Assembly (NCBI GenBank): GCA_965206595.1
Contig: OZ242214.1
Location: 1,394,986 to 1,458,985, forward strand
DNA length: 64,000 nucleotides
From: Candidatus Latescibacterota bacterium
Lineage (GTDB): Bacteria; Latescibacterota; UBA2968; UBA8231
Direction of reading: 5' to 3'
Shown here: piece after piece, positions 1 to 64,000 of the stretch
Position numbering within the stretch: position 1 is the stretch's first letter
How the letters are laid out: every line of letters begins with the position of its first letter
Position numbers and translations under genes: made by a program
The notes under the pieces: model-generated
Database searches by the model: none
What the model saw: the letters and a program-made list of their open reading frames with translations, nothing else
What the model was told of the DNA's origin: nothing

Positions 1-1196
1 TCACCATCACGTTCTTCTTTTTCGGCTGGTGGATCTATTTCGCCTTCCCCAACGGACCCGGCTTTACCGGGGGCCTCGTCGAGGCGCCTCACGCAGTAGC
101 CTGGAGCCAGCTCATGGGCCCCCACATGGGGGGCGCCGGCGACCCTGACGGTTGGGCGCGCCTCAACGGCGTCTTCTGGGCGGCCTTTCTCCTGTTCTCG
201 TGGACGGCCGCCTCCATCGTCTCGGGTTCGGTCATCGAACGCATCCGCTCCTCGGCCTTCTGGATCCTGGCGATCCTGATCGGATCGGTGTTCTGGGTCA
301 TCGACGCGGCCTGGGGCTGGCACGCCGAAGGCTGGATGGTGCAGCTGCTCGGTTATCACGACGCCTATGCCTCCGGGGTGATCCACGCCATTGCCGGCGG
401 CTTCGCTCTCGGGGTCCTGGTGGTGCTCGGTCCGCGCATCGGCAAGTTCGCCCCCGACGGCACCCCGAGGAGCCTGAATCCCCGCAACCCCTGGCTGGTG
501 ACCATCGGACTGTTCCTGATCTACACTGGCTTCTGGGGGTTCTACGTGGCCTGCAACGTTCCGATGTGGGACGTGCAGAGCGGCGACGGAACTTTCTACT
601 CCGCCACCAACATCTACCTCGCTCCCACGACCTTGTCGGCGATCACCGTGAACTTCCTCATGGCCCTGTCCGGAGGACTTCTCGCGGGTTACGTCATCTC
701 CCGGGGGGACGCCTACTGGACCTATTCCTCCGGCCTCGCCGGGATCATCGCCGCCTCGGCAGGCAACGACCTGTACCATCCGATCCAGGCGATGATCATC
801 GCCGCCCTCGGCGTCCTGTTCATGTACAAGATGCACTACTGGGTCGAAAGGCGGTTCAAGGTCGACGACGCGGTGGGCGCGGTGGCAGTCCACGGCTACG
901 CCGGTTTTTTCGGCGTCGTCATCTGCGGATTCGTGCTCTGGGGCTATCCCTCTTCCCCCAACGGGGACTACGCGTCCATCAATCCGTTGGGTCAGATCGC
1001 CGGCGCCGTGATCATGTTCGCGGTGTTGGGCTTCATCCCGGGGTGGATCGCCGCCAGGATCATCAACGCCCTGGGCGGGCTCCGCATTCCGCGGGAAGTC
1101 GAGCTGGCAGGCCTCGACTTCAGCACCGCCCACGACCGCGCGCAGGAGGAGCAGGGCATCATCCACGCCGAGCGCGAGGAGCTCGGCAGGGTCTGA
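1..1196 (+). CDS. amt: Ammonium transporter (Amt/MEP family), 5'-partial (runs off window start)
   Basis: Frame of ORF 114..1196 stays open back to base 3 (TFFFFGWWIYFAFPNGPGF...). Multi-pass membrane protein with Amt-like segments VHAIAGGFALGVLVVLGPRIGKF and VHGYAGFFGVV. Stop at 1194-1196. Confidence 0.9.
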   Translation, partial: TITFFFFGWWIYFAFPNGPGFTGGLVEAPHAVAWSQLMGPHMGGAGDPDGWARLNGVFWAAFLLFSWTAASIVSGSVIERIRSSAFWILAILIGSVFWVIDAAWGWHAEGWMVQLLGYHDAYASGVIHAIAGGFALGVLVVLGPRIGKFAPDGTPRSLNPRNPWLVTIGLFLIYTGFWGFYVACNVPMWDVQSGDGTFYSATNIYLAPTTLSAITVNFLMALSGGLLAGYVISRGDAYWTYSSGLAGIIAASAGNDLYHPIQAMIIAALGVLFMYKMHYWVERRFKVDDAVGAVAVHGYAGFFGVVICGFVLWGYPSSPNGDYASINPLGQIAGAVIMFAVLGFIPGWIAARIINALGGLRIPREVELAGLDFSTAHDRAQEEQGIIHAEREELGRV

Positions 1197-1264
1197 TTCG
1201 CCTGACGTCCCCTCGAGGGGCGGAGATCGGAACATAGCAGCATACCGGAATACAGGAGAAAGTC

Positions 1265-1498
1265 ATGACTACGGGAAACGTCGAAAGCTGGGGGGGCAAC
1301 ATCTCGGAGATCGGCCCTATGTACCCCTTCGTCGGTTCGGAGGTTCTGCTGTTCGTTGTCGGAATGGCCCTGTGGGTCGTCTGGCACGTCCTGCAGATCC
1401 GCACCGAGACGAGGAGCTACGAGGACGAGATACAGCGTTTCGGCGACAAGGAGACGCTGCAGAAGATCCTAGATGCCGAGGATCCGTACGCTCCCTAA
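1265..1498 (+). CDS. Small hypothetical membrane protein (77 aa, one hydrophobic helix) directly downstream of amt
   Basis: ATG preceded by AGGAGAAAG; GC-rich third positions; hydrophobic stretch LLFVVGMALWVVW. No family recognised. Confidence 0.45.
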   Translation: MTTGNVESWGGNISEIGPMYPFVGSEVLLFVVGMALWVVWHVLQIRTETRSYEDEIQRFGDKETLQKILDAEDPYAP

Positions 1499-1628
1499 GA
1501 GACGGAGGAACAACAACCGACCAGCAGCAGCGCAGCCCGAAACCGGGAGGCCCTGAGCCTCATCCCATCGGCATAGGCCCCTTCGTGCGTGAGCACGTGC
1601 CCGTGTGGGGGGGGCCTTCCCCTCCGGC

Positions 1629-2744
1629 CTACCAGTCCACGACCGACCCGTCGTCCGGGTCGAAGTGAACTCGATAGGGACGCGGTTCGCCGACTTGATC
1701 CATCAGCTTGTCTTCGTCGATGGCGATGCCCCGTGGGCAGGGGTCGGTGGCCGTTGGCGACAGGCGGCAGAGGTTTTGCAAGCAGGTCCTCGTATTCGTT
1801 GCCTCCGCCCTCCTGGGTGAGAAAGTTGGGGATGGCAGCGGCGATCTGCAGACTCGCTGCGAGCGAACAGGGACCTTGGGGGTTGTGCGGGGCCAGCGGC
1901 GAGTAGTAGGCCTCGGCCATGCCGGCGATGATCTTCAATTCCGTGATGCCTCCGGCATAGCAGACATCCGGCTGCAGGATGTGGGCGGCGCGCTTTTCGA
2001 GGATTTCCTTGAATCCCCACTTGGTAAAGATGCGCTCGCCGGTGGCAATGGGGATGTGGGTCTTTTCGGCGAGCTCGGCCATGACATCGACGTTGAGGGC
2101 CTGCACGATTTCCTCGTAGAACCTAGGGATGATACGGTTCGAGCGCCTTGATGAGCAGCGAGGCGGTAGGAGGCTGTACTGCGCCGTGAAAGTCAACGGC
2201 GATATCGACGCCGGAGCCGTGTTGTTCGCGGAGCGCCTTGAAACGCTCGACGATCTCATCGACGAATTTCTGGCCCTCGATGTATTTGAAGGGGGAACGC
2301 GACGTGCCCGGACCCACCTTCATGGCGTTGACGCCGGTCTTTTCGCTCACTTCGCCATATACCCGAATCCGATCGCGCGTTGGGCCGCCGAGCAGCTTGT
2401 ACACGGGCACGTCATAGCATTTTCCGGTGATGTCCCAAAGGGCCATGTCAATGCCGGAGGAGATGGCGGTTTTGATCGGGCCCCCGCGATAGAAGGCGCC
2501 GCGGTGGATGGCCTGCCAGTGATGGGTGACCGGGCGGGGATCCTTTCCTACCAAGATAATCGGCGACTTCGAGGGCGCCGGCGGCACATGCCTTGGCGTC
2601 GTTCTTGAGCATTTCGCCCCAACCGGCGATACCCGCGTCCGTCGAGATCTTGACGAAGACCCAGGAGTTTTTGAGAACGAACGCCTCGATCCTGGTGACC
2701 TTGATCGCATCGTTGGGCCCGATCGGGGCTTGAGCGCTCGACAT
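1629..2744 (-). pseudogene. Enolase-superfamily dehydratase (mandelate racemase/muconate-lactonizing family, D-galactonate dehydratase-like) broken by three 1-nt frameshifts
   Basis: N-terminus in frame of ORF 2448..2744 (VFVKISTDAGIAGWGE), middle in ORF 2123..2752 (AFYRGGPIKTAISSGIDMALWDITGK...DIAVDFHG), C-terminal part in ORF 1495..2259 (HIPIATGERIF...ILQPDVCYAGGITE), last 35 codons back in the first frame (GIAIDEDKLMDQVGEPRPYRVHFDPDDGSVVDW, stop 1629-1631). Shifts near 2550, 2125 and 1740. Start has GAGGA RBS. Confidence 0.7.
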
Positions 2745-4048: not shown

Positions 4049-4073
4049 CGGCTAGTGCCTTCGCGTGCAGGCA

Positions 4074-6137: not shown

Positions 6138-6316
6138 TGAGTATGCCTCCCGTGTGTGAAGCGGTGCGAACTACGAACTACGCAGGGTGAGTATATTCCC
6201 GTGACCGGCCCGAAAGCCGGTGTCGAACAAATAATAACTAAAAGGGATTCCCACTTCATCCACAGGCCATTCACTGGCCGGATGAGGATGCGAATCGCAG
6301 CAGAAGGAAAGTGGAT

Positions 6317-7230: not shown

Positions 7231-7693
7231 TCACTCGAAGTCGGACGAACTCTGGTTGAACTGCGTCGGCCAGCCGTTCCCGCATCGGCGTCGAAAACCG
7301 CGAGCCAGACGGTGACGGTCTCCCGCGGTTCGAGGGGCCAGTACCTGGCATCCTGGTGCCAGGGAACCGTCGATTCGTCGTGGGGGAACTTGATGAAGAA
7401 GGCCCCTCCCCACTGGTAGAAGTCGGGGCCGAGAAGGTCCTCGACGTAGTCGAGAACGGCGGGGATGCGGCCCAGCTCATGGACCAGCGGTTCGCCTTGT
7501 GCCAGTTGTTGACGCGGTAGATGTCGACGCTGTCCGGCACGCTGTCGACGAGCTCCGTGAACTCCCGCTGCAGCGTCGCGACCCCCTCCTCGTCGAGCAG
7601 GCGCAGGTTCTTCAGGTAACCGGTCTCGTGGAACTGTTCGATCCGGGCCGGGGTCAGGCGCAGGCCCCTGGCCGCGGCGGCGATTTCAGACAT
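7231..7693 (-). pseudogene. PhyH-family dioxygenase remnant (frameshifted, C-terminally truncated)
   Basis: Starts MSEIAAAARGLRLTPARIEQFHETGYL; after a shift near 7485 the alternate frame continues LVHELGRIPAVLDYVEDLLGPDFYQWGGAFFIKFPHDESTVPWHQDARYWPLEP (H-x-D iron motif); a second shift leads to a stop at 7231, so the distal His and Arg are missing. Confidence 0.6.
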
Positions 7694-12709: not shown

Positions 12710-12869
12710 GGCCCGAACCTATCATCCACGCAAGCGCACCGCCAGGGGTGCCCCCCGCGGGTTCGAGCAGGCAAGCGGGTTCAAACTGGGACTCCACTTT
12801 CTCCCGGTAAAACGGATCCGGACTATTCACGAAAGGGCTCTCCATGTCCGTCGATAGACCCAGCCGCCC

Positions 12870-13884
12870 TAGTGTCCTGTCGTATAATTAACTGTACAAA
12901 CAATTGAAGGTGCCGTAGGTTTCTCTTATCCCCCTTCTGAAAGGAGAGACCTATGGTGACGGGGCGTCCATTACCGCCGTTAGAGCTGAGTCCGTCGGAC
13001 CGGGAACGATTGGAATCGATGGCCAAATCCCGGAGCCTTTCCCACGGGTTGGTGCGGCGAGCCGAGATTAGTCTGCTGGCCGCAGAAGGCGGGCCCAATG
13101 AAGCCGTCGCCGCCGCCGTGGGTGTGACGCGTGCTACGGCTTTCTCGAAAACGGGCAAGTGGCGCCGGCGCTTTCTCGAAAACGGGCTCCAGGGCTTGCA
13201 TATGGTTTGCAGCCCCATCGACACAAGCACTTCACGCTTTCCACCGATCCTTTCTTTGTCGACAAAGTACGGGATATCGTCGGCTTATACCTGAATCCCC
13301 CCGAGCACGCCCTGGTGCTGTGCGTCGACGAGAAGAGCCGGATCCAGGCGTTGGAACGAAGTCAGCCCATGCTGCCCCTGGGACTGGGATACGTGGAAGG
13401 GATTACGCACGATTACAAGCGCCATGGCACCACCACCCTGTTTGCCGCCTTGGACGTAGCCACCGGGGAAGTGATGACCCAGTGCAAGCCCCGTCATCGT
13501 CACCAGGAGTTCCTTCAGTTCCTGCGCCACATCGAGGCCCACGTCCCCGCTGACCTCGATATTCATCTCGTCGTCGACAACTACGCCACGCATAAGCATG
13601 CCAAGGTCAAGCGATGGTTGGCACGGCGTCCCCGATTTCACGTTCACTACACCCCCACCTATGCTTCGTGGCTCAATCAGGTGGAGATCTGGTTCAATAT
13701 CCTTACCCGCCAGGCGGTTCGCCGGGACTCGTTCCGCAAGGTGTCGGAGCTCATCGAGCGCATCGAACGCTACACGGCCAAATGGAACGCCAACGCACAC
13801 CCTTTCGTGTGGACGGCTACGGCCGATTCCATCCTCGCGAAAATCAAGAGACTTTGCGAACGAATCTCTGCGACACAACACTAG
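12870..13884 (+). mobile_element. IS630/Tc1-mariner-family insertion sequence, copy 1 (degenerate)
   Basis: Ends shared with copy 2 begin right after a TA on each side (TA|GTGTCCTGTCG ... CGACACAACAC|TA); imperfect 11-bp terminal inverted repeats; about 157 bp shorter than copy 2. Confidence 0.8.
12953..13884 (+). pseudogene. IS630-family DDE transposase, copy 1, inactivated by ~170-bp internal deletion plus a 12-15-bp duplication
   Basis: Split into ORFs 12953..13294 and 13159..13884; relative to copy 2 the segment encoding [16 protein letters not shown]...HRIWRTYGL is missing and CTTTCTCGAAAACGG is duplicated; otherwise near-identical at DNA level. Confidence 0.8.
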
Positions 13885-15768
13885 CCTGTCGAGTCTCCGC
13901 AGGGAGGCGAAATCCCTGCTCGACCGGGCGCGGCGCAAAGAGCATGAAGCGTTGGCCCTCATTGGCGAGCACCACCCGGACCCGGGAGAGTTCAGCACCT
14001 ATCGCGACGCCTTGCTGGTGGTCGCCCGCAAACAGGGGCATGCCGGGTGGGGGGAGTTGCAGCGGGCTTTCGAGGAGGAGGCCGGAGCCTCGGGAAAGCT
14101 CGAAGAACGGGCCGATCTGTTCGCCGAGCTCGCCTGCCTTTCGTATCGCGGCGACGACCACGTCAGCCGCCGAGAGCGCGCCGCCCGCATGCTGGGCGAA
14201 ACTCCTGGGATTTCCAGGGTGAGCCCCTGGGCAGCCGCGGCCGCTTCCGATGTCGAAGCTCTTGGGCAGCTGATCGGGGATGGGGAAAGCGCGGTCGTCC
14301 CCGGCGGGCGGCGCGACTGGCCGCCCCTCCTCTACCTCTGCTTCAGCCGGGTTCCGGATGCCCGGCCGGGGGGCGACGCCCTGGCCGCGGCGGAATTTCT
14401 GCTCGCCGCCGGCGCCCCCGGCGACACCAGCGTCGGCCCGGAGGAACGGGGGGGCTGGAGCTGGTCGGCCCTGACAGGGGTCATGGGGGAAGGGGAGCAT
14501 GGCCTCCTGCAGCAGCCCCCCCACCCGCGGGCCCGCGAGCTGGCGGAGGTGCTGCTCGACGCCGGGGCCGACCCCAACGACTCCCAGGGGCTCTACAACA
14601 CCATGTTCACCCCGGACAACGAGTGGCTCGATCTGCTCCTGTCACGCGGTCTGCAGGCCTCCGCAGTGGTCTATCCCTCCCACGACCCGCCGCTGAGAAC
14701 CCTCGACTACCAATTGTGCTCGGCGGTGAAGAGGGGGGTGGCCGAACGGGTGTCCCTGCTGCTGGGGCACGGCGCCGACGTGGCGGCACCCGATATGTAC
14801 AACGGCCGCTCGAACTACGAGAACGCCGTTCTCGGAGGCTTCCCGGAGATCGCGGAAATGCTGGCCCAGCACGGCGCCGAGGTTGTCGAGCTGTCCCTGG
14901 AGGACCGCTTCACCGCGGCGGTGATGAGCGGCGACGAGAGCAGGGCGAGACAGCTGCTTGAAGAAGCTCCCCGCATGATCGAGAACCCCGAGCTGCTCCA
15001 GGAAGCGGTCACCAATACCGCGGCGACGCGCCTGCTTCTCGACCTCGGGGCCGATCCCGACGCCCCGAACGAGAGGGGACGCGTCCCCCTGCACTGGGCC
15101 GCCTGGGAGAACAGCGGCGAGGTCGTCCGCCTGCTGCTGGCTCGCGGGGCGAACGGCGAGATCCGGGAGCGGGACCACGACGCCACCCCGGTCGGCTTCG
15201 CCAATCACGCCGGCCACTTCGAGCTTCGCGGCCTGCTGCTCGATCACAGCAGGGACGTGTTCGACCTGACCGCCTACGGAAGGGCGGGGCAGCTCGCCGC
15301 GGTCCTGGAATCCGACCCGGACCTGGCGAATGCCCGCCTCGTGGGAGGGCACACCCCGGTTCACGGCGTTGCGGCAGGCCCCGAAGGGGAACAGGTGCTC
15401 GACCTCCTGCTCGCCCACGGCGCCGACATCGACGCCCCTGCAGCCGACGGCACGACTCCGCTGTCCGCGGCGCTCGAGCGCGGGGACGAGGAGCTGGCAG
15501 CCCTTCTGAGGGCGCGCGGCGCCAGGGAACCCGAGGGGGACTGAGGCTCCCGGCGTTCCGGTTCGCCGCCGCAAAACCGACCATCCTGCCGGTTCCTCCA
15601 CTGACCCACCCGGGAGATCGGGTGCATTCGGCCGGGGCAACGAGGTGCCCCCCGGCGGTGAAGCAGCTGTCCGCCGCTTGTTCCGGGTCACCTGTTTGCC
15701 TATTAACGTGTCCGGCAGGCCTCGCCGCGGCGGGGCCGGGAGACCCAGGAGACACGCGGAGAATAGCG

Positions 15769-24892: not shown

Positions 24893-25985
24893 AGCAAGTC
24901 CCCGGAATACAACGGACGCGAGCACGGGTGGTCCGCCCATTACGACGGCGAGTGGGTCTCGGCCGTACTGGCGGTGTTTCTGCGCGTGGTGGGCGGCTGG
25001 TATCGACGTCAGGCGCAGGCCATGGGCCATGACCGCGCGCGGTGGGGCTCGGTGACCTTCGTCCAGCGGTTCGGTTCCTCCCTGAACCTCAATCCCCACA
25101 TGCACGTGCTCATGCTCGACGGGGTCTACGTCGATGGGGAGGACGCTCCGGTTTTCGTAGCGGCCCCGCCGTTGTCGGACCAAGCCGTGCAGCAGATCGT
25201 GGAGACGAGTGCGCGCCGCATCATCCGCTTGTGCACGAAACGCGGCCTGTTGGACGACACCGCCGCCGATCCGCTCGCCGACGAGGAGCCGGTGCTGGCG
25301 GCTCTCACCGCGGCTTCGGTGCGAGGGCTCACCGCCACACCGGGGCCCGCGCCGGCCAACGCCTGCGCCGGGTCCTGAAAGATCCGGCCACCGGGGTGCG
25401 TACGGCGCCCTTGTGCTTTGCTTCGCGCGGCTTTTCGCTGCATGCGGCAACGCGGATCGCAGGCCCTGACCGGCGCGGGCTCGAACGCTTGTGCCGCTAC
25501 GTGGCCCGGCCGCCCTGGCGGGAGGGCGTCTGCGCTTTGTCGATGCCGACCCTCTTTCCTTCGCGCTCAAAACGCCGTGGTCGGATGGGACCCGCCATCT
25601 CCTGCTGTCTCCGATGGACCTGCTGGAGAAGCTGGCGGCTCTGGTTCCCCCGCCCCGGTTTCATCTCCTGCGCTACCACGGGGTCCTGGCGCCCCGGGCC
25701 CGGGCCCGCGAGCGCATCGTGCCGGCCAAGCCGGTTGCCGAGTCGTCGTCGGCGGACGGCTCGGCGAGCGTTGCGTCCTGCGGCCATCGACTGCGGTGGG
25801 CGACCCTGCTGGCGCGGGTGTTTTCCTCCGACCTCAGCGAATGCGCGGCATGCGGCGGTGGCCTGAGAATCATCGCCGCCCTGACCGATCCGGCCTCGAT
25901 CCGGACCTATCCGGAGGGGGTAGGGCTGCCGGCGATGCCCCCGCCGAGGGCCCCGCCTGAGCCGCTGTTCGAGTTCGCCGCCTGA
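24893..25985 (+). pseudogene. IS91-family (HUH, rolling-circle) transposase remnant: 5'-truncated and frameshifted
   Basis: Pieces in three frames: HUH-like NLNPHMHVLMLDGVY (ORF 24974..25378), LCRYVARPPW region (frame of 25042..25866), C-terminal FHLLRYHGVLAP plus Cys-rich CGHRLRW...CAACGG (ORF 25491..25985). Open frame begins only at 24893, directly after the ydjM-like gene, so the N-terminal ~100 aa are missing. Confidence 0.65.
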
Positions 25986-26289
25986 CCTGCCTTCTCGACC
26001 CGTCGCCGTCGCCGGGCGTACGGCGGGGGGTGCCCTCAACGGTCCCTCAGGCCCCGGATTTTGATCCGGATACGGGCCTACAGGCAACCAAACTGTACTG
26101 CGAGCTCGGCCGAAGGACTGGCAAACGATCCTCAGGGAGCTGCCTGACCCTAGCGGTGCGCTCAGCGCCTTGACCCGAGAGTCCAAAAAAGGTGCCTCAT
26201 TTTACCTATACTCAACGACGATGATGGCGCTCATAGCTCACCTCCATCTTTAAGAGACTGTTTCTGCATCGACCTTCTAATCCATTCGA

Positions 26290-26315
26290 CAACCTTGATT
26301 CTCTCGTAAAAACCC
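26290..26315. repeat. IS1182 terminal inverted repeat, outer left copy
   Basis: CAACCTTGATTCTCTCGTAAAAACCC; 20-nt core identical to the reverse complement of 28460-28479. Confidence 0.7.
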
Positions 26316-26445
26316 TACGTCCCCAGAATGCCCGGTTTTTTATACAACATATAGTGTATGCCTTGTCTTAGTTGGCCAATATATAGTGGCGCTCTAGTGT
26401 GCTGAATCGCTGAACATCCTGAAAATGGGGTTAATACGAAGGAGT

Positions 26446-26472
26446 CAACCTTGACTCCCTCGTAACAACCCC
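26446..26472. repeat. IS1182 IR-like repeat, inner left copy (imperfect)
   Basis: CAACCTTGACTCCCTCGTAACAACCCC; 3 mismatches to the core; 165 bp from the transposase stop. Confidence 0.6.
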
Positions 26473-26636
26473 GTTTTCAAGGCAGAGAATTTTTCTTGAA
26501 ACTTTAGTTTCACCAACATGAAAAGAATCGGGAATGCGCCGCTATTCAAGCAGCTTCAGCGCTCTATCGTCCGATGGCCTCGAATCGGGCTTATAAGGCC
26601 TTTTTGCGGCACCGAAAAGGACCTCCGTTCCCTTTT

Positions 26637-28382: not shown

Positions 28383-28459
28383 CCAGTAAAGAGGAAGTGT
28401 GTGACGGATTGGTATACACCAATATACCAGGAACCCTTGATTATCAGGGCTGTGAGAGA

Positions 28460-28486
28460 GGGGTTTTTACGAGAGAATCACTCTTG
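28460..28486. repeat. IS1182 terminal inverted repeat, right (transposase-proximal) end
   Basis: GGGGTTTTTACGAGAGAATCACTCTTG. Confidence 0.7.
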
Positions 28487-28560
28487 TTAAAAAGTGCGTA
28501 AAGTGGAGGCTACACCCTTTCCTGCTGTGGGGATGTTGGCAGGTACCCGAAGACCCCAAT

Positions 28561-38522: not shown

Positions 38523-38583
38523 GGGGCACCGCTTTTTGAGAGGTTGCTTCCGGTTGGCCACCCGGGCCCGGAGGAGAAAGAGG

Positions 38584-39314: not shown

Positions 39315-40398
39315 TTACTTGAGCAGTGTCATGCTGCGGGTCTCGATGCCGGCAGGAGACTGCAGACGGTAGAAGTAGGTGCCGCTGGAGAGGCCGTCGC
39401 CGCTGAGCTCGACCCGGTAGGTTCCCGCCTGGCGAAAGTCGCTGACAAGGGTGCCGATGTGCTGGCCGAGGGCATTGTAGAGATTGAGCCGGACCTCTCC
39501 CGGCTGCGGGAGCGAGTACCTGATGGTAGTGGACGGGTTCCAGGGATTGGGATAGTTCTGAACCAGGTAGAAATCGGATGGCGCCCGGAGATCGCGCTTT
39601 CGGAAGCGACTACCGTCTCCACGCCCTGAACGAGGATTCCGAGGTGGTCGAGAAAGGTCCAGCCGGCCATCCAGAGATTGTCGGCGTCGAAGGCCCCGCG
39701 ATATGCGACTGCCTGGAAGAAACCGTCATCCGGGGGCGGCACGGCGCCTGACAGGGCCGGGCTGCCGGACATCGGGCGGGGGTCGAGGGCGCCGTCGTTG
39801 GTGCGGGAGATGCCGGTCAGCTGCACGGTACTGTAGCGATCGCCGAGCCCGCGGATGTAGACGTACTTCCCTTCCATTACAGTTGCGCCGGAAACGTGAG
39901 ACATGGCTTCGGCGGCATTGCCGCTGCCGGCGCGGGAGATGTCCTCGGAGCTGATCGCATCGCTTACCGCTGGCGCCTTCTGCCGTTCCTTGAGCAGCGA
40001 TGCCTCGGTGTTTCGCAGGGCGCGAACCTCGACTACCACCTCGTCGACGGCGATCGCTTCCGAGGTCAGGACGAGATCGAGGCGCAGAACCTCGCCGGCT
40101 GCGACCACTGCCTCGGTTACGGTCACGGTGTTGTAGCCGATCATCGAGCTTTCGATCTCGTAGGTGCCGGCCGGGACGTCGGGGATCCTGAAGTCCCCCT
40201 CGATTCCGGTCACCGTGCCGAACCCGGTCTCCTTGAGGTAGACGTACGCACCGACGAGGGGTCTCCCGTTTCCCCGTCGATGATGTCGCCTGCTACAATA
40301 CCGGTTTGTGCGCCCGCTTCCGAGGGCCCGGCGATGGGAAGCAGGGCGCCGAGAAGCAGTGCGCCGAATACCTGGGTCGATCTGTGATTCTGCCGCAT
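39315..40398 (-). pseudogene. Secreted CarbopepD_reg-domain protein with T9SS (Por) C-terminal sorting domain, interrupted by two frameshifts
   Basis: Signal peptide MRQNHRSTQVFGALLLGALLPIAG (GGGAGAAAA RBS) in ORF 40210..40437; CarbopepD_reg/plug-like region in ORF 39329..40213 (GIEGDFRIPDVPAGTYEI...GKYVYIRGLGDRYSTVQLTGI); a third frame ends with a type-A T9SS CTD (FYLVQNYPNPWNPSTTIRYSLPQPGEVRLNLYNALGQ...GTYFYRLQSPAGIETRSMTLLK, stop 39315-39317). Shifts near 40240 and 39580. Confidence 0.55.
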
Positions 40399-42602: not shown

Positions 42603-42696
42603 CTTTGCATAAAGACCCCGGAAACCGCAAGCCGTGCACTGTTGCATTGGAGCGGGACGGGGGGGTTGCAAACCATTGGGCTGGCCGGCGAAGGTG

Positions 42697-47172: not shown

Positions 47173-47409
47173 GAGCAGAAAGATAGAACCGGGGACGGCC
47201 TATCCAAATAGTGTCAGGGGCAGGGATGCGAGGGCAAGCAGGGCGATGGCCAGGACCCGGAGGTAGCATCCCTTCGCGACTGTCGGCGTGCCATCAGGCG
47301 GTCGACACCTTACCATGATCGCCGCCGGTCCATGCCGCTACAGGCTAGTCCAAAACAGGGCAGGAATGAAACAACTTGGAATGCGGGGGAAACAGTGGTA
47401 CCGTTATGC

Positions 47410-48581
47410 TAGTGTCCTGTCGTATAATTAACTGTACAAACAATTGAAGGTGCCGTAGGTTTCTCTTATCCCCTTTCTGAAAGGAGAGACCTATGGTGAC
47501 GGGGCGTCCATTACCGCCGTTAGAGCTGAGTCCGTCGGACCGGGAACGATTGGAATCGATGGCCAAATCCCGGAGCCTTTCCCACGGGTTGGTGCGGCGA
47601 GCCGAGATTAGTCTGCTGGCCGCAGAAGGCTGGCCCAATGAAGCCGTCGCCGCCGCCGTGGGTGTGACGCGTGCTACGGTCGGCAAGTGGCGCCGGCGCT
47701 TTCTCGAAAACGGGCTCCCGGGCTTGCATGATGAGCTGCGCTCAGGGGCGCCACGATCGAGTACGGATGAACAGGTAGCCGAGGTGGTATACAAGACCCT
47801 GAAGACCAAGCCCAAAGACGAAACACAGTGGTCGGTGCGCTCCATGGGCGAAGAAACCGGCTTGACCAAGGACGCGGTTCATCGCATTTGGCGCACGTAT
47901 GGTTTGCAGCCCCATCGACACAAGCACTTCACGCTTTCCACCGATCCTTTCTTTGTCGACAAAGTACGGGATATCGTCGGCTTGTACCTGAATCCCCCCG
48001 AGCACGCCCTGGTGCTGTGCGTCGACGAGAAGAGCCGGATCCAGGCGTTGGAACGAAGTCAGCCCATGCTGCCCCTGGGACTGGGATACGTGGAAGGGAT
48101 TACGCACGATTACAAGCGCCATGGCACCACCACCCTGTTTGCCGCCTTGGACGTAGCCACCGGGGAAGTGATGACCCAGTGCAAGCCCCGTCATCGTCAC
48201 CAGGAGTTCCTTCAGTTCCTGCGCCACATCGAGGCCCACGTCCCCGCTGACCTCGATATTCATCTCGTCGTCGACAACTACGCCACGCATAAGCATGCCA
48301 AGGTCAAGCGATGGTTGGCACGGCGTCCCCGATTTCACGTTCACTACACCCCCACCTATGCTTCGTGGCTCAATCAGGTGGAGATCTGGTTCAATATCCT
48401 TACCCGCCAGGCGGTTCGCCGGGACTCGTTCCGCAAGGTGTCGGAGCTCATCGAGCGCATCGAACGCTACACGGCCAAATGGAACGCCAACGCACACCCT
48501 TTCGTGTGGACGGCTACGGCCGATTCCATCCTCGCGAAAATCAAGAGACTTTGCGAACGAATCTCTGCGACACAACACTAG
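47410..48581 (+). mobile_element. IS630/Tc1-mariner-family insertion sequence, copy 2 (intact)
   Basis: About 1.17 kb; TA at both junctions; same imperfect 11-bp terminal inverted repeats as copy 1; single intact transposase ORF. Confidence 0.85.
47493..48581 (+). CDS. IS630-family DDE transposase (intact, 362 aa)
   Basis: N-terminal helix-turn-helix-like region, DDE-type core ([15 protein letters not shown] ... [19 protein letters not shown] ... [12 protein letters not shown]); RBS GAAAGGAGAG. Confidence 0.9.
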
Positions 48582-49122: not shown

Positions 49123-49156
49123 CCCCGTCGAGCCATGCTCGGCGGGGTTTTTTTTA
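49123..49156 (+). terminator. Rho-independent terminator (GC-rich hairpin + T8)
   Basis: CCCCGTCGAGC-CAT-GCTCGGCGGGG followed by TTTTTTTT, 26 nt after the stop of 48612..49097. Confidence 0.65.
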
Positions 49157-49597
49157 CATGCCGAGTGCCCTGGCCCCGGTCCGGGTCAGGCGAGCCGAGG
49201 TCCACTCCGGCTCCCAGGTAAAGTCGACGATGCACTGGCGTACCCCGTCCACGGCGAGCACGCGGTCGCGGATCGGGTTGCCGATGAATTGGTACTTCGG
49301 GCGGCCGCGGTGCGGCATCGTCATCAGGATCCTGGCCACTCCGTCGTCGACCCGCAGATCGTAGATGTACCCCATGTCGACCACGTTGCTGTCGATCGCC
49401 ATCAGCTGATCGTCTTCGACCTGGCGCAGGGCCTCCCATACAGAGCGTTTGAGCGCATGGTCGGCGGCGCCGGCATGGGTCAGGCCGGTCTCGCCCGGGC
49501 GCCCCAACCTTCCGTTGGCGGTTGCCTTCACCTCAGGTAGCTCTCCTTCCGAAACCGAAAGCGGGTTCAGCAGACGACGGCGCAGGTCCTGTACCAT
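49154..49597 (-). CDS. DUF59/MIP18-like (metal-sulfur cluster assembly-type) domain protein
   Basis: C-terminal 147 aa of ORF 49154..50158 from the ATG preceded by GGAGGAGA; domain pattern VWEALRQVEDDQLMAIDSNVVDMGYIYDLRVDDGVARILMTM...VDFTWEPEWT. Confidence 0.55.
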   Translation of the reverse strand: MVQDLRRRLLNPLSVSEGELPEVKATANGRLGRPGETGLTHAGAADHALKRSVWEALRQVEDDQLMAIDSNVVDMGYIYDLRVDDGVARILMTMPHRGRPKYQFIGNPIRDRVLAVDGVRQCIVDFTWEPEWTSARLTRTGARALGM

Positions 49598-50958
49598 TTC
49601 GCGGCCGTTCTCCTCCGGGTAGTGCGAGGCGAAGTATGCGTTCTTTGAAAGAGCGCCGACCCCTCCTGCAAATCCGTCCTGCCGTGGATGGGGGCGCGGC
49701 ACCAGATCTGGCCGCGGCCGAAATAGCTGAGGTTGGGAGGACCGCTGTGGTTCAGGGGGCCGCAGTTTTTCGACCGATGCTCCAGCCAAAGGGCTATGAA
49801 AGCGTCGCGGCTTTCGCGGCGGAAGAACCCGACGCCCCATTGGTCGTTCTCGTGGGAAACTGGCACTTCCCCTTCGTGCAGAATCCCCTCGCGGTCGATC
49901 CAGACGGAGTCGCTGAACGGCATCCCGTAGAACAGCCACTCGTCGTCGCGCACCACGTTGGTCTCGAAGCGCGCCAGCGCATCCATGCGGCTCTCCTTGA
50001 GGAACCAGGGGAGCCCGGCGTAGAAGGTGTAGGTCAGGTCCATGTGCAGCCGGCTCGGCGTAAACACCGGGTGCAGGGAAGAGCGAGGAAACCCCCAGCG
50101 GCGCACCTGCACGCACAAGGGGCCGCGAATCACCTCGTAGTTCGGGCAGCGGGACCACCCGGTTACGCGAAATTTTTGGTAGTTGCCGGAGCCCATGTAG
50201 TCGTGGCCCCAGTCGATTCCCGGAGGTTCGCCGTGCCCTTCTCCCCCGGTGTACAGCTCCAAGGGGGCGCCGTAGGGCACGATCCCGAAGCCGCGTCTGA
50301 ACTGCAGCCGCTGCAGCTGGCCGTTCTGGGCGGAAAGGTGGGCGGTGAAGTGGTTGCTGGCGATGCTGAGGCCGAACTCCTCGCCGCTGACCGCCAAGTC
50401 GGTAGGGTACTCCGGCAACTCGGCGTCGCGGTTGCCGTACAGAATCAGGTACCGGCCGCGGCTGTTGGCCGGCAGATCGACCTGGAGCAGCAGCCGGCAG
50501 CTTCGCACCTCGCCGTCGAACACCTCCCGACAGACCTGGCTCGGCACCTCGCGCAGGGTCCCGCTTTCGTCATCGATCCTGGCGACGCGAAGCTCGCGTC
50601 GCAGATCGGTTACCTGGTCGGCAGCAAATTCGACGACGCTCTCGACAGGCTCCCTCGATCTTTCCAGGCCGGCGCTCTCGGCGATCTCCAGGACCTTGTA
50701 GAAGGCCCATCCCCGCGCCCAGTCCTCCCACGGGTCCGGCAGCCCCGCCACGCGCCCGAAGCTCGAAGCCGGGGAGGGGGCCGCTTCGCCGCTGCCATGG
50801 CCGGACAGGTGCCGCTGGCGTTCGAAGGTCAGCGTCTCCTTGATCGACTCGGCCAGCGACATGGCGACATCGATGTTGCCCTCCCGGTGTGCAGTCTCCA
50901 GGAGGCGCAATTTCACCTCGACGCTGTCGGTACGGTGCCGGTATTCGGTCTCTGGCAT
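49567..50958 (-). CDS. Hypothetical cytoplasmic protein (463 aa, no family recognised)
   Basis: Start at internal ATG 50958 (MPETEYRHRTDSVEV) with AGGAGAAAG RBS; the upstream 216 codons of ORF 49567..51606 are not credited; C-terminal ~25 aa look low-complexity. Confidence 0.5.
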   Translation of the reverse strand: MPETEYRHRTDSVEVKLRLLETAHREGNIDVAMSLAESIKETLTFERQRHLSGHGSGEAAPSPASSFGRVAGLPDPWEDWARGWAFYKVLEIAESAGLERSREPVESVVEFAADQVTDLRRELRVARIDDESGTLREVPSQVCREVFDGEVRSCRLLLQVDLPANSRGRYLILYGNRDAELPEYPTDLAVSGEEFGLSIASNHFTAHLSAQNGQLQRLQFRRGFGIVPYGAPLELYTGGEGHGEPPGIDWGHDYMGSGNYQKFRVTGWSRCPNYEVIRGPLCVQVRRWGFPRSSLHPVFTPSRLHMDLTYTFYAGLPWFLKESRMDALARFETNVVRDDEWLFYGMPFSDSVWIDREGILHEGEVPVSHENDQWGVGFFRRESRDAFIALWLEHRSKNCGPLNHSGPPNLSYFGRGQIWCRAPIHGRTDLQEGSALFQRTHTSPRTTRRRTAAKWYRTCAVVC

Positions 50959-53234: not shown

Positions 53235-53905
53235 CCTGTCTCCTCTGGTTTGGGTATGGGTTGTCCAGGGCAACCTACGGGAATCCTTCTCCTGCGACCA
53301 ACGCCGCGGGTGGAGCCTCGCGACCCCGTCCCTGGGGATCGGCTCGCATGCGGTAGAAATCCCTTATATCCGGATGCCAGGTACAGGATGGGTTGCGACC
53401 ACGGGCGCTCCCTTTCCCTCGATGCCCACAAACACGGGCCTGGAGGGAAAGGGAGCGGAACGCGCTCTACCTGCCGACACCGTACTACACTCCCGGCGGC
53501 CGTGAATGGGAGGAACTCGACCCCGTGCTGCCTGCCGGCTTCGACCCGGAGGGGCCGGCGGAGTTCGAGGATTTCTGATTTGGGGAAGAGTACGTGTCAG
53601 CTCCCGACGAGGGGGCGGGACCACGAATGCAGCGGTGGCGAAGGACTGCACGTGTTGAAGATCATCATGGGGCTGTTCGAGTCTGCCGCATACGGCCGTC
53701 GAATGGAAATGCCGCAGAAACCGGAGTCATCCCCTGCTGCGCTGGCGCCGGGAACACGGCCTCGGCGATCCAGGACCGTGCCGAGAGACTACGGGGAGTG
53801 GCTGGCGGTCGAGGATGAACGACTTGCCGGGAAGAGCCCGAACGCGTAAGTCCGGGTTCGTACCGAGGGGGCGGATGCCCCCGTAGCCACTGACAGCTGG
53901 GGGGA

Positions 53906-54772
53906 TCAGGCTGCTTCGGACAGGTTCTCCGGCATGTTCTCGAGCCTCGTCATCCAATAGTGGGCGTCGAAATTCCCGTCGCCGGTCAGAAATCGCCACA
54001 GCTTGATCCTGTTGACGATCTCGAGACGCCCGTCGGCCGCCTCGAACCAGGGCTCCTGCCGGTTGAGGATCGTCGGGATGCTGTCCTCTCTGTGGCTCGA
54101 ACCGCCGTAGATGATTTCCGGCCCTCCCCCTTCATCGAGGTCATCGGTGTTCCACAGTCGCAGCTGCCGCACCGTGGGGTTCAGGCGGATCTTGAACATG
54201 TAACGGACCCGGTCGGTCTTGTTCTGCCGGCCGCAGTGCCAGATGCCGTGGTGGACGACCGCCAGGGTGCCCGCTTTGCACACCATCGGCAGCTGTCCGA
54301 GGAAGTTCTGGTAGCGGCCGACGTCGAGCTCGTTGACGCGGCGGAAATGGCTTCCCGGAAGCAGCATGGTGCCGCCCATTTCCAACGGCACGTCGTGGGG
54401 GAAGTACATCAACTGGATGTCGAAGTGCATGCGCATGTCGATGATCGAGTCGCCGTGCAGCCCCTGGGCATGGCCTTCGTTCGGCTGGCGGACGTGAACG
54501 GCCTGATGGTCGAACAGGGGGTCTTCTCCGACCAGGCTCTGGATGATCCCGTGTATTTCCGGCATCCTCAGCATCTTTCCGACAGGAGAGGGGTCGGGGT
54601 AGCATTTCGACAACGGGGTGCCGGCGGGTTGGCTGTCGATGCCGCCGCCGTCGATCTCGGCGATCACCGCCCGATTGATCTCCCCGGGTACGATCTCGTC
54701 CAACTGAAGCACGCCGCGGGCCACGAATTCAGCCATCTGACTCGAGTTGAGCAGGTACTTTTTTTCGACCAT
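53906..54772 (-). CDS. PhyH-family Fe(II)/2OG dioxygenase
   Basis: Start at internal ATG 54772 (MVEKKYLLNSSQMAEFVARG) with GGAGGAGA RBS; H-x-D (LHGDSIID), distal His/Arg (IWHCGRQNKTDRVRY). Confidence 0.85.
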   Translation of the reverse strand: MVEKKYLLNSSQMAEFVARGVLQLDEIVPGEINRAVIAEIDGGGIDSQPAGTPLSKCYPDPSPVGKMLRMPEIHGIIQSLVGEDPLFDHQAVHVRQPNEGHAQGLHGDSIIDMRMHFDIQLMYFPHDVPLEMGGTMLLPGSHFRRVNELDVGRYQNFLGQLPMVCKAGTLAVVHHGIWHCGRQNKTDRVRYMFKIRLNPTVRQLRLWNTDDLDEGGGPEIIYGGSSHREDSIPTILNRQEPWFEAADGRLEIVNRIKLWRFLTGDGNFDAHYWMTRLENMPENLSEAA

Positions 54773-58349: not shown

Positions 58350-58351
58350 CC

Positions 58352-60535: not shown

Positions 60536-60573
60536 ATCGTTGCGTAGGGGGCACACACGGTCCGGGGCAGCAT

Positions 60574-61940: not shown

Positions 61941-62034
61941 CCGGTTTGGAGCCCCCGGACAGATCGGCACCGGTTCATTTTTTCCAGGGGAGCCAGGCGC
62001 GGGAATCCCGTTTGACAGCCTCGGGAACGGGGCC

Positions 62035-63102
62035 TTGTTTCCAAGCGATTACCCTGCCTCTGGACCGCCCACAGTGAATATCCCGACCCCAGCCATTTTC
62101 CGAGTCGCACTCCTTTTCCTCATTTCCTGCGCACCGCTCACGAAACCGGTGCCCGAACCCGATTCCGCTGCCACCGAGCCGGAGGAGGCGCAGGAAACCC
62201 CCCTTGAGCGTTACCTGCAAAGCAGGCCGGCGGAGGAGACCGAGACCAAAAGCAAAAAGCCCTGGATCGCCGTCCTGCCGATGAAAGACGAGTCTGGATT
62301 TCGCGAAGGTGTGTGGGATATAGAAAACGAGCTTCCAGCCCTGCTGACCGAGGAACTGGGCTCGCAGGATGTCTGGCGCTCCGTTCCGTACGACGCAGTG
62401 CGGCAGGTCGCAGGCGGTGCGCGCGATCACTGGCCCGACGAGGAGCTTATACGCGTCGCCGTTCTGTTGCGCGCCGACATCCTTCTGAAGGGAACGGTTC
62501 TCGACTACAACATGGAACGGTTCCATGTCGGAGATCCGCTCCTCGCCGGGTACAAATCCTTCAGCGGCATCGCCGAACTGGAGCTTAGCGCAATGCGGGG
62601 AGGGGACCTGTCGACGCTCGGAAGGCTGTATTCGAAGAAGGAGACGACCGACCGCGACCTCGGACTCGACCTGTTCGGCAAGCCGCGCGAGCAGGACTTC
62701 CAGTACGTCAATCTCGACAAGATGGCGTTCGGCTCCGACGAATTCCGCGCCACTCCCATAGGTGAGGCAACCGTGCAGGCGCTCGTCGAGGTGGGGGACA
62801 AGCTCTCCGAGCTGATTCGCCCGGGGAACATTCGCCTGGGAAGCGAACCGGCGAAGATCCTGTCGGTGTACGGCGACGAGATATTCATCAACCTCGGGAG
62901 CGAGAACGCCGTGCACAGGGGGTACCGCTTCGAAATCTACCCCGGGCCGGAGCGGGCAATCGAGAAAGAGCTGGACACCTTGGTGAGCGTGGGCTTGGTC
63001 GAGGTTGCCGACGTCGTCGGGGCGCGCGTATCTCGAGTCGTGATGATCGGCAACGGGGAAATCGCCTCCGGTGACCGCCTGAAATTCGTACAACCCCAGT
63101 AG
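62035..63102 (+). CDS. Putative lipoprotein (CsgG/LpoB-like motif IAVLPMKDESG); start uncertain
   Basis: Lipobox-like LLFLISCAP; ORF track opens at TTG 62035, an in-frame GTG at 62074 gives a shorter signal peptide (MNIPTPAIFRVALLFLISC); no family assigned confidently. Confidence 0.5.
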   Translation: MFPSDYPASGPPTVNIPTPAIFRVALLFLISCAPLTKPVPEPDSAATEPEEAQETPLERYLQSRPAEETETKSKKPWIAVLPMKDESGFREGVWDIENELPALLTEELGSQDVWRSVPYDAVRQVAGGARDHWPDEELIRVAVLLRADILLKGTVLDYNMERFHVGDPLLAGYKSFSGIAELELSAMRGGDLSTLGRLYSKKETTDRDLGLDLFGKPREQDFQYVNLDKMAFGSDEFRATPIGEATVQALVEVGDKLSELIRPGNIRLGSEPAKILSVYGDEIFINLGSENAVHRGYRFEIYPGPERAIEKELDTLVSVGLVEVADVVGARVSRVVMIGNGEIASGDRLKFVQPQ

Positions 63103-63123
63103 TCGAGAGAGGAAAGCCGGAAG

Positions 63124-64000
63124 GTGGAGGGAGTTGTCAAATACCAGCGGGGCCGCGGGTTCGTGGAGCTTCGCGACGTCGAGGAGCAGCCTCCCGGGCC
63201 CTCGCAGGTGAAGATCGAAGTGAAGGCGAGCGGGATCTGCGGATCCGATCTGCACATCCTGCACGACACGATCAACTACAACATCCGCACCCCGGTGGTC
63301 ATGGGCCACGAGTTCAGCGGCGTCGTGATCGAAAAAGGGGCCGGGGTCGGCGAGGGGGTGGCAATCGGCGATCGCGTCACGGGTGAACCGAGCATCGAGA
63401 TCTGCGGCAGCTGTTCCTACTGCCTGAGCGAACACTACAACCTCTGTCCTGGCCGCAGGGTGATGGGCTACTACCACAACGGCTGCTTCGCCCCGTACGT
63501 CAACGCCCGTTTTGTCCATCGCCTGCCGGACAACGTCAGCTTCAAGGCGGGGGCGGTAACCGAGCTCCTGGCGTGCTGCGTTCACTCCGTAATCGAACAG
63601 GCGGGGGTGGCTGCCGGTGACTTCGTCGCCGTCATCGGACCAGGGCCGGTCGGTTTGTTCTCGGCGCTGGTAGCGAAGGCGGAGGGTGGAACGGTGATGG
63701 TTTGCGGCACTTCCAGGGATCGCGAACGTCTCCGATTTGCCGAAGAGCTGGGGATCGATGAGACCGCGGTCGTCGACGGGACCGACGTCGCAGGGCGGGC
63801 GCGCGAGTTGACCGGGGGCTACGGCGCAGATGTCGTTGTCGAATGCGCCGGGGTGGCACCGGCCATCGACCTCGCTCTCGACATGGTGCGCAAACGGGGC
63901 AAGGTGTCGCAGATGGGGCTGCCCGGGAAGCCGGTGCAGGTCGACTTCGAGAAGGTGGCCTACAAGGAACTGCAGGTGAGCGGGGGGATCGGACAGAGGC
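63124..64000 (+). CDS. Zinc-dependent alcohol/polyol dehydrogenase (MDR family, sorbitol/threonine dehydrogenase-like), 3'-partial
   Basis: GTG start 63124 with GAGAGGAAAG RBS; catalytic-zinc motifs GICGSDLH and GHEFSGVV, structural-zinc Cys cluster CGSCSYCLSEHYNLC, Rossmann GPGPVGL; runs off the window end. Confidence 0.85.
   Translation, partial: MEGVVKYQRGRGFVELRDVEEQPPGPSQVKIEVKASGICGSDLHILHDTINYNIRTPVVMGHEFSGVVIEKGAGVGEGVAIGDRVTGEPSIEICGSCSYCLSEHYNLCPGRRVMGYYHNGCFAPYVNARFVHRLPDNVSFKAGAVTELLACCVHSVIEQAGVAAGDFVAVIGPGPVGLFSALVAKAEGGTVMVCGTSRDRERLRFAEELGIDETAVVDGTDVAGRARELTGGYGADVVVECAGVAPAIDLALDMVRKRGKVSQMGLPGKPVQVDFEKVAYKELQVSGGIGQR

Follow-up and report, generated by a model that had tools for sequence, protein, structure and literature searches.

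Strain comparison points to genuine pseudogenes at several stages of decay in a 64-kb stretch of a Candidatus Latescibacterota chromosome

The broken genes in the stretch of DNA analyzed here (64 kb in full, hereafter the window) are very probably genuine pseudogenes and gene remnants at varied stages of decay, made by insertion sequence (IS) insertion, small indels, and erosion after gene death. The window lies in a chromosome-scale contig of 7,053,161 bp from the GC-rich genome of an uncultured Candidatus Latescibacterota bacterium, and the record names of its relatives suggest a sponge-associated lineage. An earlier note on this DNA had listed seven loci as broken, and each is disrupted where the note placed it. 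Four further disrupted loci were found, namely a 601-aa DUF59-domain gene, a Gfo/Idh/MocA remnant, an ankyrin gene, and a PMT_2/TPR trace. Altogether, about 10 disrupted loci occupy ~9 kb (14% of the window), and our recount gives about 41-42 intact genes rather than the more than 45 of the earlier note. The main comparison for shared lesions was strain B, a separately assembled strain that is 99% identical to the window. The disrupted loci have homologues encoded by single full-length ORFs (374 aa for the enolase-family gene, 553-555 aa for the PPIase, 601 aa for the DUF59-domain gene, and 394 aa for Gfo/Idh/MocA), relative to which disabling lesions were found, and partial Pfam domains support homology at the PhyH, Y2_Tnp, GT1, and Plug remnants. 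The lesions exist, either inherited or polymorphic among strains, and frame-breaking indels accumulate about 10 times faster in dead loci than in live genes.

The galactonate dehydratase family pseudogene (enolase superfamily; 1629..2744, minus strand; Pfam MR_MLE_N and MR_MLE_C) is read by tblastn as four frame segments, and DNA alignment with an intact 374-aa homologue resolves the breaks as +1, +1, and -11 bp. Intact 374-aa homologues occur at 83-93% identity, with P0001 at 93%. The first frameshift (FS1), an additional G within 2542-2561, is common to strain B. The second (FS2), a +1 at 2124 that creates CCC TAG G, and the third (FS3), an 11-bp deletion at 1730/1731, are not in strain B; decay of this gene thus appears to be progressive, with the window adding FS2 and FS3 to the shared lesion. 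FS3 recurs in an independent Illumina (SPAdes) contig, L009, and L007 and L008 hold the undeleted allele. Codon changes number 71 synonymous versus 23 non-synonymous, and repairing the indels leaves the gene free of stop codons. Substitutions separating the window from strain B are too few overall for dN/dS; this gene has 0, along with 2 indels. The three small indels in this 1.1-kb gene are clustered more tightly than chance predicts (P = 6e-4 under a uniform spread, or 0.03 allowing for 52 genes).

At the parvulin-type PPIase, a SurA/PpiD-like lipoprotein gene (28488..30142, plus strand, of which 28561-30142 had been flagged; identified from homologues and tblastn), an IS insertion and a small deletion are combined. 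An IS1182/IS5-like element with 27-nt terminal inverted repeats (26289..28487, minus strand) adjoins codon 2 of the PPIase with its right end. The start codon is lost at this junction, with none upstream of the lipobox, and the beginning of the signal peptide is also gone. The transposase gene of the element is intact (581 aa, 26637-28382), and its orthologue in strain B, with DDE_Tnp_1_6 and DUF772 domains, is split by an additional T. A 2-bp deletion at about 28795 turns a His codon, CAT, into T, so that tblastn finds two frames meeting at EML|RQV. The repaired PPIase is covered 100% by its intact homologues, and there are zero indel differences from strain B across the gene.

Other flagged loci are more heavily reduced. 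The PhyH (phytanoyl-CoA dioxygenase family) remnant (7231..7693, minus strand) retains Pfam PhyH positions 1-135 of 213. In a three-way alignment with strain B and L012, TT is reduced to T near 7489, a loss of 1 bp, and ~380 bp are missing between AACGGCTG repeats near 7271-7281; both deletions are common to strain B. In L012 the orthologue bears a separate 37-bp deletion, and L016 lacks the gene. Another PhyH gene, intact in the window, is split in strain B by a 23-bp tandem duplication. The IS91-family (Y2 transposase) remnant (24893..25985, plus strand) matches Pfam Y2_Tnp in two stretches. It is truncated at the 5' end, with the N-terminal ~100 aa gone, and a three-frame reading reveals two or more frameshifts, located near 25340 and 25500; over its span it has zero indel differences from strain B, with one substitution in the compared codons. 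Pfam and tblastn with strain B proteins further resolve a scrap heap of three gene fragments on mixed strands (34325..35031). It consists of a 22-aa PMT_2/TPR paralogue trace (34325-34390, minus strand), a 107-aa BNR/Asp-box fragment (34475-34795, plus strand), both located by tblastn, and a GT1 fragment (34794-35027, plus strand, in a frame different from that of BNR) that covers Pfam Glyco_trans_1_4 positions 21-98 of 142. The scramble is common to strain B, which has 2.4 kb and 512 bp beyond the window's sequence in this region. Against strain B, the BNR/GT1 remnant has 96.5% identity and four 1-bp indels in 630 bp, whereas most other aligned blocks are about 99% identical.

Large deletions also shaped two remnants compared with L049, a 93%-identical relative. 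The locus at 39315..40398 (minus strand; Pfam CarbopepD_reg_2, Plug positions 3-70 of 107, and Por_Secre_tail) is a chimera in which the N-terminus of a TonB-dependent receptor (TBDR; CarboxypepD_reg and part of Plug) is joined by deletion to the C-terminus (CTD) of a T9SS-secreted protein. Its frame is broken near 40259 and at 39579-39585. L049 has 426 bp extra here and is itself fragmented, with 9 indels between the lineages. Substitutions relative to L049 favor third codon positions, whereas in an old shared pseudogene they would be spread evenly; the bias fits late, independent inactivation or GC-biased mutation. The Gfo/Idh/MocA oxidoreductase remnant (53441..53914, plus strand), found by tblastn with the intact 394-aa L049 protein, comprises the last ~135 codons. 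Relative to L049 it has a ~790-bp deletion and 5 further out-of-frame indels; 5 relatives retain an intact gene, and the deletion is common to strain B.

Two copies of an IS630-family element carry a DDE_3 transposase domain, terminal inverted repeats, and a TA target duplication; the family's N-terminal HTH is present in the intact transposase. Copy 1 (12869..13884, plus strand; delimited by self-BLAST and alignment to copy 2) splits an ankyrin-repeat gene at CTAG in codon 9. Comparison with the L012 orthologue, which starts MSVDRSSRPSLSSLRREAKS, identifies a 5' stub of the start codon and about 8 codons (12844..12870, plus strand); the window reads ATGTCCGTCGATAGACCCAGCCGCC and continues directly into the IS end CTAGTGTCC. 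L012 and L016 have no copy 1 at this site. The gene body (13885..15544, plus strand; Pfam Ank_2/Ank/Ank_4) is 88.5% identical to that of L012 with one gap, and reads open for 552 codons in the frame of an ATG at 13598 inside the IS (ORF 13598-15544). Compared with copy 2, copy 1 has a 169-bp internal deletion and a 12-bp tandem duplication, which leave both terminal repeats; its transposase is destroyed, and DDE_3 is the sole remaining Pfam domain. Copy 2 (47409..48581, plus strand; Pfam HTH_23/HTH_32/DDE_3) encodes an intact 362-aa transposase. It is missing from 6 of 6 relatives, with the empty site GCTAGATGG found in strain B, and is a recent insertion at CTAG with TA duplication. As is typical of IS630/Tc1-mariner elements, both copies have CTAGTGT... 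inverted ends, lie at CTAG with TA duplication, and are matched by empty sites in strain B and L012. Copy 1 departs from that behavior in being a non-autonomous deletion derivative; with its two ends retained, it could in principle be mobilized by copy 2.

The earlier note held that damage confined to specific genes argues for genuine decay, and strain comparison bears this out for the seven flagged loci. It also left consensus error open and proposed checking whether the frameshift sites are homopolymeric. Polishing errors in a long-read metagenome assembly, with the genes intact in the organism, are now a very improbable source of most of the frameshifts, and for each of the seven flagged loci the comparison largely closes this option. 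At several megabases, the contig resembles a long-read assembly, and frameshifts that split ORFs are what homopolymer artefacts of such assemblies look like. However, the resolved flagged lesions lie outside runs of 3 or more bases (their contexts are G to GG, T|G, -11, -2 (CA), TT to T, and large deletions), and many are multi-base, with resolved deletions of 11, 2, 169, ~380, ~426, and ~790 bp in addition to IS insertions. Truncations and IS insertions are impossible as polishing artefacts. Lesions are common to strain B in 5 of the 7 flagged loci (enolase FS1, PhyH, IS91, PPIase, and BNR/GT1) and in the Gfo deletion, and the 11-bp enolase deletion is reproduced across sequencing technologies. 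Indels between the window and strain B with a length other than a multiple of three number 7 within the shared pseudogenes, which span 5.4 kb, against 5 across 38.8 kb of coding sequence that is intact (odds ratio 10, p = 2e-4), and intact genes differ from L049 by 3-bp indels only. Sequencing error is blind to dead versus intact loci, so this ~10-fold contrast indicates that the lesions are genuine; it also shows the relaxed constraint expected of pseudogenes. Artefacts would likewise be commoner in longer runs, but the intact genes contain 157 homopolymer runs (115, 32, and 10 of 5, 6, and 7 bases) with 0 frame breaks, and a G8 run near 1600 reads the same in strain B and in the three spanning Illumina contigs as it does in the window. 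Three differences of 1 bp separate the window from strain B in 48.6-64 kb, and all sit in short homopolymer runs. The sole disabling site in a run of three or more bases, 49644-49646, is in a gene that the earlier note did not list, the 601-aa gene with a C-terminal DUF59/FeS_assembly_P domain (49154..50958, minus strand; defined from homologues and a multi-strain alignment). One base is lost there (A4 to A3, an A4/T4 run) in this assembly only; strain B has an intact 601-aa protein (P0390), the Illumina contig L050 reads TTTT there, and the source contig yields a 463-aa product (P0279), whose repaired form is covered 100% by intact 601-aa homologues. This lesion could be a consensus error, and it is the only one for which we see that option. 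The gene is broken at another site in the L053 lineage.

A different objection would accept the lesions and hold that some interrupted genes still function, through a programmed +1 frameshift at the CUU_U of the PPIase, expression as split polypeptides, or use of the ATG inside IS630 to translate the ankyrin body. We consider this highly unlikely. As in prfB-type CUU_UGA frameshifting, a +1 slip at GAG ATG CUU U|CGC would restore the frame (...EML-RQVTARL...) and give a PPIase lacking only one His, and the PPIase body is open for 461 codons, as the ankyrin body is for 552. The PPIase and ankyrin bodies might still be expressed. However, reading of the PPIase site reveals no adjacent in-frame stop, rare codon, or upstream Shine-Dalgarno-like stimulator, the start codon and beginning of the signal peptide are lost to the IS, and the intact homologues are unshifted single ORFs, so that the slippery site, stimulator, and conserved architecture of a programmed frameshift were not found together. 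The enolase-family gene would need three separate recoding events, one across an 11-bp gap, and IS630 copy 2 is a single intact ORF, so programmed frameshifting is not used by copy 1. The products of the broken genes are probably non-functional. It is more plausible, yet still not our favored view, that the window represents a variable island of atypical character, in which turnover of mobile elements and paralogues is concentrated and whose pseudogene density is little guide to the genome. The window holds four IS-related elements in 64 kb, relatives differ in gene content in several places (at the enolase slot, in the 33.3-35 kb region, at a DeoC slot, and at the 713-aa gene), and recombination tracts of 91-97% identity lie inside a 99.7% background. 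Such an island is compatible with real lesions and would limit only genome-wide extrapolation, but the window also contains neighbors of housekeeping type (FBPase and AmtB) and long syntenic blocks common to many relatives, which suggest ordinary chromosome with no discrete island.

Three processes very probably underlie the broken loci. Insertion sequences land in or beside genes, as with IS630 in codon 9 of the ankyrin gene and the IS1182-like element at the start of the PPIase. Small indels inactivate genes that are probably dispensable or redundant, such as members of the expanded PhyH, Gfo/Idh/MocA, and PMT_2 families and a displaced enolase-family copy. Dead genes then gain more indels, and slippage or recombination between short direct repeats trims the remnants, at times fusing neighbors. 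Relaxed selection on redundant paralogues and mobile elements, arising from redundancy, a host-associated lifestyle, or a small effective population, is presumably the cause. Decay also appears to proceed in parallel across lineages, judging from the 37-bp PhyH deletion in L012, the break in the 601-aa gene in L053, and the 23-bp PhyH duplication in strain B.

Pseudogenization under relaxed selection is already well-known biology. Pseudogenes and IS accumulate under relaxed selection or recent host restriction in Mycobacterium leprae, Sodalis, and Shigella. The same has been described for the luminous symbionts of anglerfish (PMC6020299). The window resembles these systems in having frameshifted, truncated, and IS-interrupted genes next to intact ones, in the piling up of lesions in dead genes and the erosion of remnants by deletion, and in the coexistence of an active element (IS630 copy 2) with decaying ones (IS630 copy 1 and IS91). 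It differs in that the GC-rich Latescibacterota genome, at about 7 Mb, is large and shows no sign of reduction, the load here being that of 64 kb, and in that many of the victims are expanded families (PhyH, Gfo/Idh/MocA, and PMT_2) or mobile elements rather than unique core functions. We speculate, tentatively and with more doubt than confidence, that these large-genome, apparently sponge-associated Latescibacterota are in an early stage of IS-driven erosion, with ~15-20% of loci dead and single-strain lesions still segregating within and between host samples. The single-strain lesions cited for this reading are the 11-bp deletion, the 23-bp duplication, and fresh IS630 insertions.

For annotation, these loci should be called pseudogenes, neither repaired by polishing nor counted as functional capacity; counting them as functional overstates the galactonate dehydratase, PPIase, PhyH, and TonB-receptor repertoire. 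Even without reads, comparing strains among public long-read metagenome assemblies can tell real decay from assembly error. A 7-Mb symbiont-type genome can hold dead genes and IS in substantial numbers, with active turnover. If the early-erosion reading is true, the many chromosome-scale assemblies of this group would constitute a natural time series from which to measure how fast pseudogenes arise, decay, and are deleted before the genome shrinks.

About ten loci in the window are disrupted, compared to about 41 intact genes, and dead sequence makes up about 14% of the window (roughly 9 kb). Raw ORF lists were swamped by shadow ORFs because of the 65% GC content. Codon log-odds were trained on long, high-GC3 ORFs and used in a Viterbi segmentation into six coding frames plus non-coding sequence; gapless frame switches on the same strand were taken as candidate frameshifts and checked individually against Pfam and intact homologues. 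Frame switches at 15763/16588, 37776/38587, 53915/54776 and 57582/58329 were rejected because they mark adjacent, separate genes. The key step was alignment of the window with syntenic DNA of related strains from public assemblies. With the TonB-dependent receptor (TBDR) gene at 4074-6137 as query against species-representative genomes, we obtained 37 loci, mostly from Candidatus Latescibacterota MAGs, many of them chromosome-scale. Judging from isolate and bin names among them, these relatives may be sponge-derived. PAUC34f, a sister clade of Latescibacteria with genomes of 5-8 Mb, was first found in sponges (PMC7081726).

Our closest comparison was a near-identical, separately assembled strain, referred to here as strain B (contig ctg820168_11x_l, 2.3 Mb; loci L006, L011 and L055). 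Between strain B and the window, most of the aligned sequence is ~99-99.7% identical, and some tracts drop to 91-97%. This divergence is patchy: 45 of 72 substitutions fall in positions 1-1000, in amtB, almost all of them synonymous, and divergence is ~3% in an IS (26.4-28.4 kb), 9% in the PMT_2/TPR gene (35.0-37.5 kb) and roughly 0.1-0.3% elsewhere, which looks like recombination tracts between strains. The other comparison loci came from a 93%-identical relative (L049/L051), four more relatives (L052-L054 and L056), sister species (L012 and L016), and short Illumina/SPAdes contigs from other samples (L007-L010 and L050).

The earlier note had flagged seven loci as broken, namely an enolase-family gene, a PhyH remnant, two transposases (IS630 copy 1 and IS91), a PPIase, a BNR/glycosyltransferase remnant (here BNR/GT1) and a T9SS-CTD protein (here the TBDR/T9SS remnant), and all are disrupted. 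Whether such lesions reflect decay or assembly error can be judged from four independent lines of evidence, their type, their reproducibility, the signature of selection and a homopolymer control, all of which point to real lesions. Many of the resolved lesions are deletions of 2-790 bp or IS insertions. Most lesions are common to strain B, and one is also found in an Illumina contig. Frame-breaking (non-3n) indels between the window and strain B total 7 across 5.4 kb of already-dead loci and 4 across 4.3 kb of non-coding DNA outside them; the 38.8 kb of intact coding sequence has 5, which gives an odds ratio of 10 for dead loci versus intact coding (p = 2e-4). Between the window and L049, out-of-frame indels are all intergenic or in pseudogenes, and intact genes contain 3-bp indels only. 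Sequencing error would be blind to whether a gene is live or dead. The argument that gene-specific damage indicates genuine decay was borne out by the sharing with strain B and the depletion of indels in intact genes. The homopolymer check that had been proposed gave a consistent answer: no resolved lesion in the flagged loci lies in a homopolymer of at least three bases, 42 intact genes hold 509, 115, 32 and 10 runs of 4, 5, 6 and 7 bases, respectively, with no frame break, and a G8 run shows no difference between the window, strain B and the three Illumina contigs covering it. Substitutions between the window and strain B were too few for dN/dS in the pseudogenes (0 in the enolase gene and 1 in the PhyH remnant).

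Only one lesion is both in a homopolymer and limited to the window's assembly. It lies outside the flagged loci, in a gene with a C-terminal DUF59 domain (49154-50958, minus strand) that has lost one A in CAAAAG. When repaired, this gene encodes 601 aa, and intact homologues numbering in the hundreds (about 580-630 aa) align with it end to end; the product from the window's own contig is 463 aa. The gene is unbroken in strain B (P0390, 601 aa) and in Illumina contig L050. A separate frameshift (GGG -> GGGG) in the L053 lineage leaves a 277-aa product on three contigs, and the gene is therefore evidently dispensable. Given the homopolymer control and this repeated loss elsewhere, the lesion, the only ambiguous one, is probably a very recent mutation, with a consensus error as the less likely reading. 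Programmed frameshifting was considered and rejected for this gene, IS630 and the PPIase: intact homologues are unshifted single ORFs, IS630 copy 2 is one intact ORF, and the CUU_U at the PPIase junction has neither a stop codon nor a Shine-Dalgarno-like element beside it.

The histories of individual loci differ. The enolase-family gene (1629-2744, minus strand; Pfam MR_MLE_N and MR_MLE_C) belongs to a highly conserved family. Relative to the intact gene for P0001, a 374-aa homologue, it has a +1 insertion (G -> GG) within 2542-2561, a +1 insertion at 2124 that creates CCC TAG G, and an 11-bp deletion at 1730/1731. Strain B has the first lesion only, so the other two came later. The undeleted allele is present in strain B, L007 and L008, and the 11-bp deletion also occurs in SPAdes contig L009 from another sample; having been seen with a different technology, it is a real polymorphism. 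The repaired gene contains no stop codon and differs from its homologue at 71 synonymous versus 23 non-synonymous codons; its inactivation is recent. The slot itself is variable: L012 has unrelated DNA there, and in L016 it is almost empty.

The PhyH remnant (7231-7693, minus strand) carries a TT -> T change and a ~380-bp deletion between AACGGCTG repeats, both common to strain B, which has one further 1-bp loss. The L012 orthologue is full length with its own 37-bp deletion, and the gene is missing from L016. This is parallel loss of one paralogue in a much-expanded family. We counted about ten PhyH/2OG-Fe(II) oxygenase loci in the 64-kb window (7888-8820, 15763-16644, 20360-21226, 37770-38561, 46264-47172, 53906-54772, 56581-57450, a WelO5-like gene at 18600-19424 and the remnant), with Gfo/Idh/MocA, SDR, Rieske and ThuA genes interspersed among them. 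Such a density suggests that the lineage has a large, expanded family of catabolic genes. One Gfo/Idh/MocA gene, intact in five relatives, is itself an unflagged remnant (53441-53914), with a ~790-bp deletion common to strain B and five more out-of-frame indels. A DeoC remnant was sought in the 60.5-61.0 kb gap, where relatives carry a DeoC gene, and none was found.

Four IS-related elements are present in the window. IS630 copy 1 (12869-13884) retains both inverted ends and, compared to the intact copy 2 (47409-48581), has lost 169 bp internally and gained a 12-bp duplication. The earlier note had recognized the broken transposase but missed that the element splits an ankyrin gene: the insertion site is a CTAG in codon 9, and the start of the L012 orthologue is uninterrupted. 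At copy 2, all six relatives, including strain B, have an empty CTAG site, so this insertion is very recent. In L052, an IS630-like transposase gene (5622-6695, 357 aa) adjoins the GH42 gene, whose product is called there at 939 aa, which suggests independent IS630 activity across the lineage. The IS91 remnant (24893-25985) has lost its N-terminal ~100 aa and has at least two frameshifts; it is free of indels relative to strain B, and the compared codons contain a single substitution.

An IS1182-like element (26289-28487) abuts the PPIase gene, its right inverted repeat running up to codon 2. Its left inverted repeat is doubled (26290-26315 and 26446-26471, 156 bp apart) and is single in strain B; the extra copy may have arisen by local duplication or be the lone end of another insertion. 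Within the transposase gene, at 27321-27410, the window and strain B have different copy numbers of a 15-bp tandem repeat that encodes (DDDQT)n; the difference is two units, or 30 bp, and keeps the frame. Intact PPIase homologues of 553-555 aa cover 100% of the repaired PPIase sequence. The two frames join at EML|RQV; a 2-bp deletion there has left just one T of a His codon, and no start codon lies upstream of the lipobox; both lesions are common to strain B. GC content across this pseudogene (28000-30200) is 57%, versus ~65% elsewhere, compatible with foreign origin or AT-biased decay.

Further remnants lie at 33-42 kb. The block at 34325-35031 combines a BNR/Asp-box fragment with an out-of-frame GT1 fragment, and its strain B counterpart is equally scrambled and 512 bp longer. 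The two differ by four 1-bp indels and 3.5% substitutions, compared to at most ~1% in the majority of the other blocks aligned. Of an unflagged PMT_2/TPR paralogue that is 746 aa long in strain B, the window retains a 22-aa trace. At that position the window has ~1 kb with weak coding signal (33305-34325), which resembles nothing in the single strain B locus aligned there (L011); Pfam searches with two ORFs from the window-specific 33.3-34.6 kb and several small ORFs gave no match. The TBDR/T9SS remnant (39315-40398, minus strand) corresponds in L049 to an already fragmented locus, in which a TBDR N-terminus precedes the 3' portion of a T9SS cargo gene. In the window a further ~426 bp is gone, leaving an in-frame fusion (...DRYSTVQL|TGISRTNDG...), and nine more indels separate the two lineages. 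Substitutions still favour third codon positions, a pattern confounded by genome GC3 bias. A 713-aa gene (40593-42734), with a C-terminal CHU_C/FlgD_ig-like (T9SS-type) domain, is missing at the syntenic L049 site and was either gained in the window lineage or lost in L049.

Strain B also has lesions where the window is intact, namely a 23-bp tandem duplication in the PhyH gene at 20360-21226, an extra T in the IS1182-like transposase gene and a 1-bp change truncating the PMT_2/TPR gene, indicating that decay is ongoing in the population. A periplasmic binding protein gene in the window has an 18-bp in-frame tandem duplication in its signal-peptide region (3893-3910) that strain B lacks. In L004 (ena:ERZ21829562:ctg246951l), a relative of the L001-L003 loci, a PhyH gene (3028-3844; 116+166 aa), a PhyH-like gene (6011-6788; 55+165 aa) and a Gfo/Idh/MocA gene (13971-14977; 165+169 aa) are split in two. 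All three are intact in the other three assemblies, and the splits are either extra pseudogenes in that strain or the product of a lower-quality assembly.

The processes observed are IS insertion at specific targets, deletion between short direct repeats, tandem duplication (12, 18, 23 and 156 bp) and quicker accumulation of indels in dead loci. The victims appear to be dispensable, being members of expanded paralogous families, mobile elements or, for the enolase gene, a displaced copy, and relaxed selection in a host-associated population may allow the lesions to persist. Our literature search on pseudogene load in sponge Latescibacterota found no specific report. Pseudogenes are otherwise rare in prokaryote chromosomes (PMC11229322), and IS-driven pseudogene accumulation has been described in symbionts (PMC6020299). 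These results support and sharpen the earlier interpretation: the pattern is the familiar accumulation of pseudogenes and IS elements under relaxed selection, found here, in contrast to known cases, in a large, unreduced genome.
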